Assembly (NCBI RefSeq): GCF_041248615.1
Contig: NZ_CP158426.1
Direction: 5' to 3' (one strand)
Length of the DNA: 64,000 bases
From: Escherichia coli
GTDB lineage: Bacteria > Pseudomonadota > Gammaproteobacteria > Enterobacterales > Enterobacteriaceae
Shown here: in pieces, positions 8,576 to 9,560 of the stretch
Numbering within the stretch: the first letter of the stretch is position 1
Layout: every line of letters starts with the position of its first letter
Position numbers and translations under genes: made by a program
Notes under the pieces: model-generated
Database searches by the model: none
Seen by the model: the letters and a program-made list of their open reading frames with translations, nothing else
What the model was told of the DNA's origin: nothing

Positions 8576-9535
8576 GTGGCACAACGAGATTATGTACGCC
8601 GCAGCCAACCGGCACCTTCGCGGCGAAAAAAGAGCACCTCACGGAAAAAGCAACGAAATCTGCCTGCGGTTTCTCCCGCTATGGTCGCTATTGCTGCCGC
8701 CGTTCTTGTGACCTTTATCGGTGGTCTGTACTTCATTACGCATCACAAGAAAGAAGAGTCCGAGACGCTGCAAAGCCAGAAAGTGACCGGAAACGGACTA
8801 CCACCAAAACCAGAAGAACGCTGGCGCTACATCAAAGAGCTGGAAAGTCGCCAGCCAGGTGTGCGTGCGCCTACAGAACCTTCTGCCGGTGGTGAAGTGA
8901 AAACGCCGGAGCAACTGACACCAGAACAACGCCAGCTTCTTGAACAAATGCAGGCCGATATGCGCCAGCAGCCAACGCAGCTGGTTGAAGTTCCGTGGAA
9001 TGAGCAGACGCCGGAACAGCGTCAGCAAACGCTACAGCGCCAGCGTCAGGCACAGCAATTAGCGGAGCAGCAACGCTTGGCTCAGCAGTCGCGTACGACT
9101 GAACAAAGCTGGCAGCAGCAGACGCGTACGTCGCAAGCCGCACCGGTACAGGCGCAACCGCGCCAGTCTAAACCGGCTTCTACTCAGCAGCCGTACCAGG
9201 ATCTGCTGCAAACCCCTGCGCACACGACCGCGCAGTCGAAGCCGCAGCAAGCTGCGCCGGTTGCTCGTGCCGCTGACGCGCCAAAACCGACGGCGGAGAA
9301 AAAAGACGAACGCCGCTGGATGGTGCAGTGCGGTTCGTTCAGAGGCGCGGAACAGGCAGAGACGGTACGTGCTCAGCTGGCGTTTGAAGGCTTTGACTCG
9401 AAAATCACCACCAACAATGGCTGGAATCGTGTGGTCATTGGCCCGGTGAAAGGCAAAGAGAACGCAGACAGCACCCTCAATCGCTTGAAGATGGCGGGTC
9501 ATACAAACTGCATTCGGCTCGCCGCCGGGGGTTGA
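8576..9535 (+). CDS. ftsN: Cell division protein FtsN (SPOR domain)
   Basis: GTG start; MAQRDYVRRSQPAPSRRKK..., a TM segment, a Q-rich linker and a C-terminal SPOR domain. Confidence 0.93.
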   Translation: MAQRDYVRRSQPAPSRRKKSTSRKKQRNLPAVSPAMVAIAAAVLVTFIGGLYFITHHKKEESETLQSQKVTGNGLPPKPEERWRYIKELESRQPGVRAPTEPSAGGEVKTPEQLTPEQRQLLEQMQADMRQQPTQLVEVPWNEQTPEQRQQTLQRQRQAQQLAEQQRLAQQSRTTEQSWQQQTRTSQAAPVQAQPRQSKPASTQQPYQDLLQTPAHTTAQSKPQQAAPVARAADAPKPTAEKKDERRWMVQCGSFRGAEQAETVRAQLAFEGFDSKITTNNGWNRVVIGPVKGKENADSTLNRLKMAGHTNCIRLAAGG

Positions 9536-9560
9536 AACCCTCAAAATCCCCCCCATCTAT
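9532..9560 (+). promoter_or_regulatory. Sigma-32 heat-shock promoter of hslVU
   Basis: TTGAAA (9532-9537), 14-nt spacer, CCCCATCT (9552-9559); fits the sigma-32 consensus TTGAAA-N13-15-CCCCATNT, ~70 bp upstream of hslV. Confidence 0.75.

Follow-up and report, generated by a model that had tools for sequence, protein, structure and literature searches.

The sigma-32 heat-shock promoter of the hslVU (clpQY) operon in a non-K-12 Escherichia coli genome: architecture, start site and conservation of a known regulatory site

The promoter of the hslVU operon is already known, published biology, with the K-12 site hslVp (also the clpQY promoter) going back to Chuang et al. 1993, as cited in the 2009 study of Lien et al. 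(PMC2681174). It ties the synthesis of the HslVU protease to misfolding of proteins under stress, a piece of textbook knowledge that is left unchanged by the present analysis. In the work of Lien et al., clpQ::lacZ fusions go up upon a shift from 30 to 42 °C and Northern blots concur; clpQ expression is lost in rpoH and rpoH rpoS mutants and is wild-type in the rpoS mutant, with a residual basal expression remaining in rpoH mutants (PMC2681174). A change of the -10 sequence from CCCCAT to CCTCAT lowers the activity 1.7-fold and abolishes heat induction, and a 141-bp fragment is heat-inducible and as active as one of 478 bp (PMC2681174). The same study extends to the leader of the transcript: deleting or scrambling its stem lowers both the level and the half-life of clpQY mRNA, and a restored stem of unrelated sequence rescues the mRNA, from which these authors themselves inferred that the hairpin protects the 5' end from decay (PMC2681174). 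The ompA and papA leaders, with which Lien et al. drew a comparison, likewise carry a stable hairpin within a few nucleotides of the 5' end, the presence of which, rather than its sequence, prolongs the life of the mRNA; they have no sequence relationship to the hslVU leader. A further point of reference is dnaK P1, a validated sigma-32 promoter seen by cryo-EM in a sigma-32 open complex, with CTTGAA at -35 to -30 and CCCCATTT at -15 to -8 (PMC10216364).

The window, by which we mean the whole 64-kb stretch of DNA analyzed here, carries priA, cytR, ftsN, hslV, hslU, menA, and rraA on its plus strand, and the 92-nt intergenic region between ftsN and hslV holds the promoter boxes. The features concerned, in window coordinates, are the following.

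8576-9535, plus strand: ftsN coding sequence (ORF list and RefSeq annotation of identical E. coli records)
9532-9537, plus strand: -35 box TTGAAA, invariant as GGGTTGAAA in an alignment of 48 species
9533-9535, plus strand: ftsN stop codon TGA, inside the -35 hexamer TTGAAA
9538-9550, plus strand: spacer of 13 nt, the last three bases being part of the C7 homopolymer
9548-9554, plus strand: C7 homopolymer, straddling the spacer and the -10 box
9551-9558, plus strand: -10 box CCCCATCT, at -16 to -9 relative to +1
9558-9563, plus strand: perfect TATAAT, its first base being the last of the -10 box; a latent -10 of sigma-70/sigma-S type, out of register
9567, plus strand: transcription start (+1), an A (K-12 4122348, by cap-dependent long-read mapping in K-12)
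9572-9593, plus strand: 5'-proximal hairpin with a 9-bp stem, GCCCCGUAC / GUACGGGGU, and a UUUU loop (MFE fold)
9616-9620, plus strand: Shine-Dalgarno sequence AGGGG, 7 nt before the GTG, its GGG nearly invariant across species
9628-10158, plus strand: hslV (clpQ) coding sequence with a GTG start (ORF list and annotation of identical records)
10168-11499, plus strand: hslU (clpY) coding sequence (ORF list and annotation)
11528-11553, plus strand: intrinsic terminator of the hslVU unit, a stem-loop at 11528-11549 plus a T-tract (terminator scan)

We are as good as certain that this site is hslVp, the promoter through which sigma-32 (RpoH) places the hslVU (clpQY) operon under heat-shock control, in a form identical to that of K-12. 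Positions 9485-9815 of the window are identical to E. coli K-12 MG1655, so that the K-12 promoter experiments transfer to it base for base; the -35 box, the C7 run, the -10 box, the leader, the Shine-Dalgarno sequence, and the GTG are all the same, without a single difference in promoter or leader. The strain itself is not K-12, as there are 32 substitutions over 3186 aligned nt, all of them in the flanking coding regions, and it presumably behaves like K-12 in this respect. Positions convert by subtraction (the K-12 coordinate equals 4131915 minus the window position). The promoter-down allele clpQ-m1 of Lien et al. thus maps to C9553T in the window (from the sequence of primer F3), and their 141-bp fragment, delimited by primers F1 and R1, corresponds to 9525-9665 and begins 7 bp upstream of TTGAAA. 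Because this fragment is fully active, the promoter needs nothing beyond 9525-9665. For the identical K-12 sequence, dependence on RpoH and induction by heat are both published (PMC2681174), and they also bear out the heat-shock control of the protease operon that the first-pass annotation of this DNA had proposed.

With the start at 9567, TTGAAA occupies -35 to -30; it agrees with the -35 consensus (C)TTGAA(A) at six of six positions (9532-9537), the preceding base being a G where the consensus has C. In the -10 element, CCCCATCT matches all seven specified positions of CCCCATNT. That this match exceeds chance is confirmed by two counts. TTGAAA-N12-16-CCCCATNT occurs a single time when both strands of the 64-kb window are counted, with 0.01 occurrences expected from dinucleotide-preserving shuffles, and a score scan of the window over 13 specified positions, with spacers of 12-15, returns the hslV promoter as its single 13/13 site, where 100 Markov-1 simulations lead one to expect 0.01. 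The second-best sigma-32-like site of that scan, TTGAAC-N14-GCCCATCT at about 32020-32047 on the minus strand, scores 11/13 and was rejected, since 7.3 such sites are expected by chance; it sits within a plus-strand ORF. The first-pass annotation had read a sigma-32 promoter directly upstream of hslV, and both TTGAAA and CCCCATCT are indeed present there on the plus strand, between ftsN and hslV. Its notation TTGAAA-N14 holds for the boxes and fails for the distance, the literal spacer being 13 nt (9538-9550). A value of 14 is obtained only if the -35 is written as (C)TTGAA or the -10 as CCCATCT; PMC10044804, which describes 'a run of seven C's' in the hslVU promoter, also gives a 14-nt spacer. 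The count slips easily because seven C's (9548-9554) adjoin the boundary. The end that had been assigned to the motif, 9560, is two bases too long, as the motif stops at 9558. With these corrections the sigma-32/hslVU interpretation is supported. As a calibration, the case indicates that reading by eye recovered a validated alternative-sigma promoter at the right coordinates, and that the type of error to expect is an off-by-one spacer count beside a homopolymer.

Compared with dnaK P1, which reads TTGAAG-N13-CCCCATTT, the architecture is the same: both have a 13-nt spacer when counted alike, both have CCCCATxT, and both have CC as the 'extended -10'. They differ in that hslVp has a G rather than a C before TTGAA and CCCCATCT rather than CCCCATTT as its -10, and the distance from the -10 to +1 is 8 nt in hslVp and 7 in dnaK P1. 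From the cryo-EM complex of dnaK P1 one would expect, by analogy, that E-sigma32 makes direct contacts with the DNA at hslVp. In a genomic SELEX screen with the RpoH holoenzyme hslV is absent, in a data set that covers no more than 20 of the 322 known RpoH promoters and gives dnaK itself only 3.2 (PMC5493296).

The start site at 9567 derives from SMRT-Cappable-seq, which reports a transcription unit at NC_000913.3 4120362-4122348 on the reverse strand, b3932|b3931, with 143 reads at the start 4122348 in M9 and 76 in rich medium (PMC6131387). For reverse-strand rows of that table the start is in the 'end' column, a reading checked on the leuL example (start at 83735). The first-pass annotation had pointed to the mapped K-12 start as the relevant comparison, and the outcome agrees with its -10 element: +1 lies 8 nt past the last T of CCCCATCT. 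With the GTG at 9628, the 5' leader of the hslVU mRNA is then 61 nt long (9567-9627). A second independent start-site data set was sought, and neither the Kim 2012 nor the Cappable-seq 2016 supplements have an hslV entry; a full-text literature search on 'hslVp' and the start-site coordinates returned unrelated papers only.

For Lien et al. the 'first' start lies 71 bp before the start codon, which would be 9557, inside the -10 box; their Fig. 1A has several start arrows, taken from the 1993 paper (PMC2681174). A start at 9557 is geometrically incompatible with the -10 box that the same authors underline, and it conflicts with the cap-dependent map, with their own -10 mutant, and with the A at 9567, which is invariant in 48 species. 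Since the cap-dependent map and the conservation agree, a 61-nt leader is preferred over one of 71 nt. The wording of the 71-bp statement suggests that it is imprecise or mis-numbered, either because it refers to the uppermost of several bands in primer extension or through a slip of 10, and it does not amount to a refutation of the promoter. The construct described as having the '71-nucleotide leader' begins with CATCTATAAT, at window position 9554 (PMC2681174); given the cap-mapped +1, the pBAD 'wild-type leader' constructs, which run from 9554, include about 13 surplus bases upstream.

The leader hairpin pairs 9572-9580 with 9585-9593 and begins 5 nt from the 5' end of the mRNA. It is recovered by the Rfam family RF02401, 'ClpQY_promoter', which aligns to 9573-9630 over its full length (positions 1-57 of 57) with 63.6 bits against a gathering threshold of 42 and an E value of 2e-13. 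This family has the same 8-bp core hairpin as the leader in the window; despite its name, it models the transcribed leader, from the hairpin to the start codon, and not the DNA boxes at 9532-9558. In an unfitted MAFFT alignment of 48 species, eight of the nine pairs have changed on both sides. Paired cells make up 84.9% in the hairpin as opposed to 37-53% in slid controls, with 52.8% as the highest control value, and the observed covariation was reached by none of 500 shuffles. These values were obtained by counting the pairs of this hairpin directly, a procedure that replaced RNAalifold on the promoter-to-start alignment; the pairing that RNAalifold proposed, between a G-run before the -35 box and the C-run of the hairpin, was set aside as an artefact of including non-transcribed DNA. 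A further instance of change in the stem is seen in the locus L005 (599-706), labeled 'Escherichia coli strain SCPM-O-B-8794' and a GTDB representative, whose leader hairpin GCCCCGCACAATTGTGCGGGGC has compensatory changes relative to both the window and K-12. Its promoter boxes are unaltered despite these changes.

Within E. coli the arrangement is close to uniform. A 501-nt stretch around the promoter matches 5425 of 5426 complete genomes, where it is annotated as ftsN / hslV, and of these 5425 genomes 5096 agree in every base of the 91-nt core (9510-9600). Three core variants that were sampled comprise ftsN codon changes, G9565A at -2, and a C to T change in the stem that still allows a G-U pair; in all three, neither box is altered, nor is the spacer. 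Across genera, we considered 80 loci from species-representative genomes with HslV, mostly Enterobacterales with a few Vibrionaceae and Alteromonadales. A 13/13 match is present in the 200 nt upstream of hslV in 65 of these 80 species and a match of at least 12/13 in 76, and control scans, inside hslV or on shuffled upstream sequence, give 10/13 at most. TTGAAA is intact in 76 of the 80 and CCCCAT-T is kept in the same number; the spacer of the orthologous promoter is 13 nt in 63 and 14 nt in 13 of 76 species. In an alignment by MAFFT of 48 species with similar leader length, GGGTTGAAA, CCC(C)A(T)-T, a single A, the G-run of the Shine-Dalgarno sequence, and CGTGACA at the start codon stand out as invariant or nearly so. 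The invariant A, at column 42 in the window sequence, is position 9567, the cap-mapped +1, and it lies 8 nt past the -10 in 46 of the 48. These columns form a clean phylogenetic footprint of a promoter.

Some loci depart from the common pattern. Pectobacterium zantedeschiae (L051) has its perfect sigma-32 match farther out, at 181 nt before hslV as against the usual distance of about 60-115 nt, which suggests that its leader carries an insertion. In the endosymbiont Candidatus Gullanella endobia (L079), hslV has a TTG start and no recognizable sigma-32 promoter is found within 700 nt upstream. The overlap of the ftsN stop with the -35 box is itself widespread, with the long open frame ending at the TGA within TTGAAA in 68 of the 77 promoter-bearing species. 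As this overlap has been kept in so many of them, the last ftsN codons and the upstream edge of the promoter are jointly constrained.

At the other end of the unit, the mapped 3' end of hslVU, K-12 4120362, corresponds to window position 11553, the last base of the intrinsic terminator, and is classed as 'terminator b3931' among the SMRT-Cappable-seq termination sites. The annotated menA start (about 11566) is only about a dozen bases past this end. Read-through transcripts spanning hslV-hslU-menA-rraA, and others spanning ftsN-hslV-hslU, were detected by SMRT-Cappable-seq (PMC6131387). Taken together with the published genetics, the following course of events emerges. Sigma-32 RNA polymerase would recognize TTGAAA and, 13 bp downstream, CCCCATCT. 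Transcription starts at the A at 9567, and that of hslV-hslU goes up when sigma-32 accumulates upon heat or misfolding stress. The GC-rich 5' hairpin (9572-9593) of the 61-nt leader would shield the mRNA from decay, and the transcript ends at the 11528-11553 terminator, with some read-through into menA-rraA. Part of the hslVU transcripts enter from upstream, as ftsN-hslV-hslU.

Alternative accounts have to contend with the same observations. The existence of transcripts entering from ftsN raises the question of whether hslVU is expressed essentially by read-through from the ftsN/cytR promoters, with GGGTTGAAA and the hairpin being constraints of the ftsN 3' end, that is, its stop codon and a terminator or attenuator, and no promoter at all. 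The conserved location of the ftsN stop inside TTGAAA (68 of 77 species) and the ftsN-hslV-hslU transcripts (PMC6131387) accord with such an account, as does the form of the leader hairpin, which looks like a terminator stem followed by UUUGU. However, the 143 (M9) and 76 (rich medium) reads from 9567 are capped and therefore primary (PMC6131387), and a fragment from 9525, which is without the ftsN promoter, has full heat-inducible activity (PMC2681174). The -10 box is non-coding and yet invariant in 48 species. The hairpin is not called by a simple terminator scan, the Term-seq table has no 3' end on the sense strand between K-12 4122300 and 4122399 (PMC7815308), and the hairpin raises rather than lowers downstream expression (PMC2681174). 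Read-through from ftsN does occur, but it can account neither for the capped ends at 9567 nor for the fact that 9525-9665 is active; as the sole source of hslVU expression it is largely refuted, and the probability that we attach to it is close to nil. A different objection accepts a promoter at this place and questions its class: the functional element could be of sigma-70 or sigma-S type, using the perfect TATAAT at 9558-9563, with the sigma-32-like boxes incidental. The basal expression that persists in rpoH mutants speaks for this, as does the overlapping putative RpoS -10 noted by Lien et al. (both PMC2681174), and a weak RpoS-holoenzyme SELEX peak of intensity 3.6 falls in the hslV/ftsN spacer, 9536-9627 (PMC5493296). 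In addition, a 2-bp deletion in the C-run would give TTGAAA-N18-TATAAT, a place where stronger sigma-70 promoters are predicted by PMC10044804. In the sequence as it stands, however, TTGAAA and TATAAT are 20 bp apart, and no sigma-70-type promoter therefore passes a simple scan of 9000-10200, for which reason TATAAT was rejected as the main promoter; a -10 at TATAAT would also leave only 3 nt before the +1 at 9567, which is too short a distance. TATAAT is kept in just 18 of 77 species, as against 76 of 80 for CCCCAT-T. The genetics point the same way, since expression in the rpoS mutant is wild-type, a mutation of the putative RpoS -10 left it unchanged (given as data not shown), and heat induction needs both rpoH and C9553, which is outside TATAAT (PMC2681174). 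We consider a sigma-70 or sigma-S promoter in place of the sigma-32 one exceedingly improbable; TATAAT may contribute the residual basal expression.

The proximity of the two -10 sequences also underlies the idea that the C7 tract is a slippage-prone tuning knob, which could flip hslVU from heat-shock to constitutive control. Loss of one C would break the sigma-32 spacing, and loss of two would place TTGAAA 18 bp from TATAAT, creating a near-consensus sigma-70 promoter. Such deletions have been obtained in the laboratory: a 1-bp deletion in the C-run, at -74/+19 (position 9554), went to fixation in two populations that had been rescued at 43 °C, in an experiment in which hslVU frameshifts also arose, and the heat-evolved strain BM28 has a 2-bp deletion in the run. 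The C7 homopolymer is a recurrent target of laboratory heat evolution. A 2024 heat-evolution preprint gives a 'G to T' promoter SNP. In nature, C7 is essentially fixed among 5,425 E. coli genomes, with C6 in 16 and C8 in 3-4 of them, and neither the length of the C-run (4-8) nor TATAAT is conserved across genera; on both grounds the evidence argues against selection maintaining the latent C7/TATAAT arrangement in Escherichia and its close relatives. Likewise rejected was the idea that the run undergoes phase variation in nature, C6 and C8 being very rare; strain 2013C-3277 has C6 in assembly H56 and C7 in assembly H39, which suggests sequencing error, and some of the C6/C8 calls are probably homopolymer errors. 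A regulatory switch at the C7 tract is accordingly, in our estimation, highly unlikely, and the sigma-32 promoter hslVp remains the preferred reading of the site.

One further signal adjoins the hslV start. In Term-seq, an RNA 3' end is recorded on the plus strand of K-12 at 4122347 and classed as antisense to ftsN (PMC7815308, supplementary file 1). It corresponds to position 9568 on the minus strand of the window, next to the hslV +1 and 4 nt past the leader hairpin, which is palindromic. The signal could stem from a genuine antisense RNA that stops at the hairpin, or it could be an artefact that mirrors the abundant hslV 5' end.
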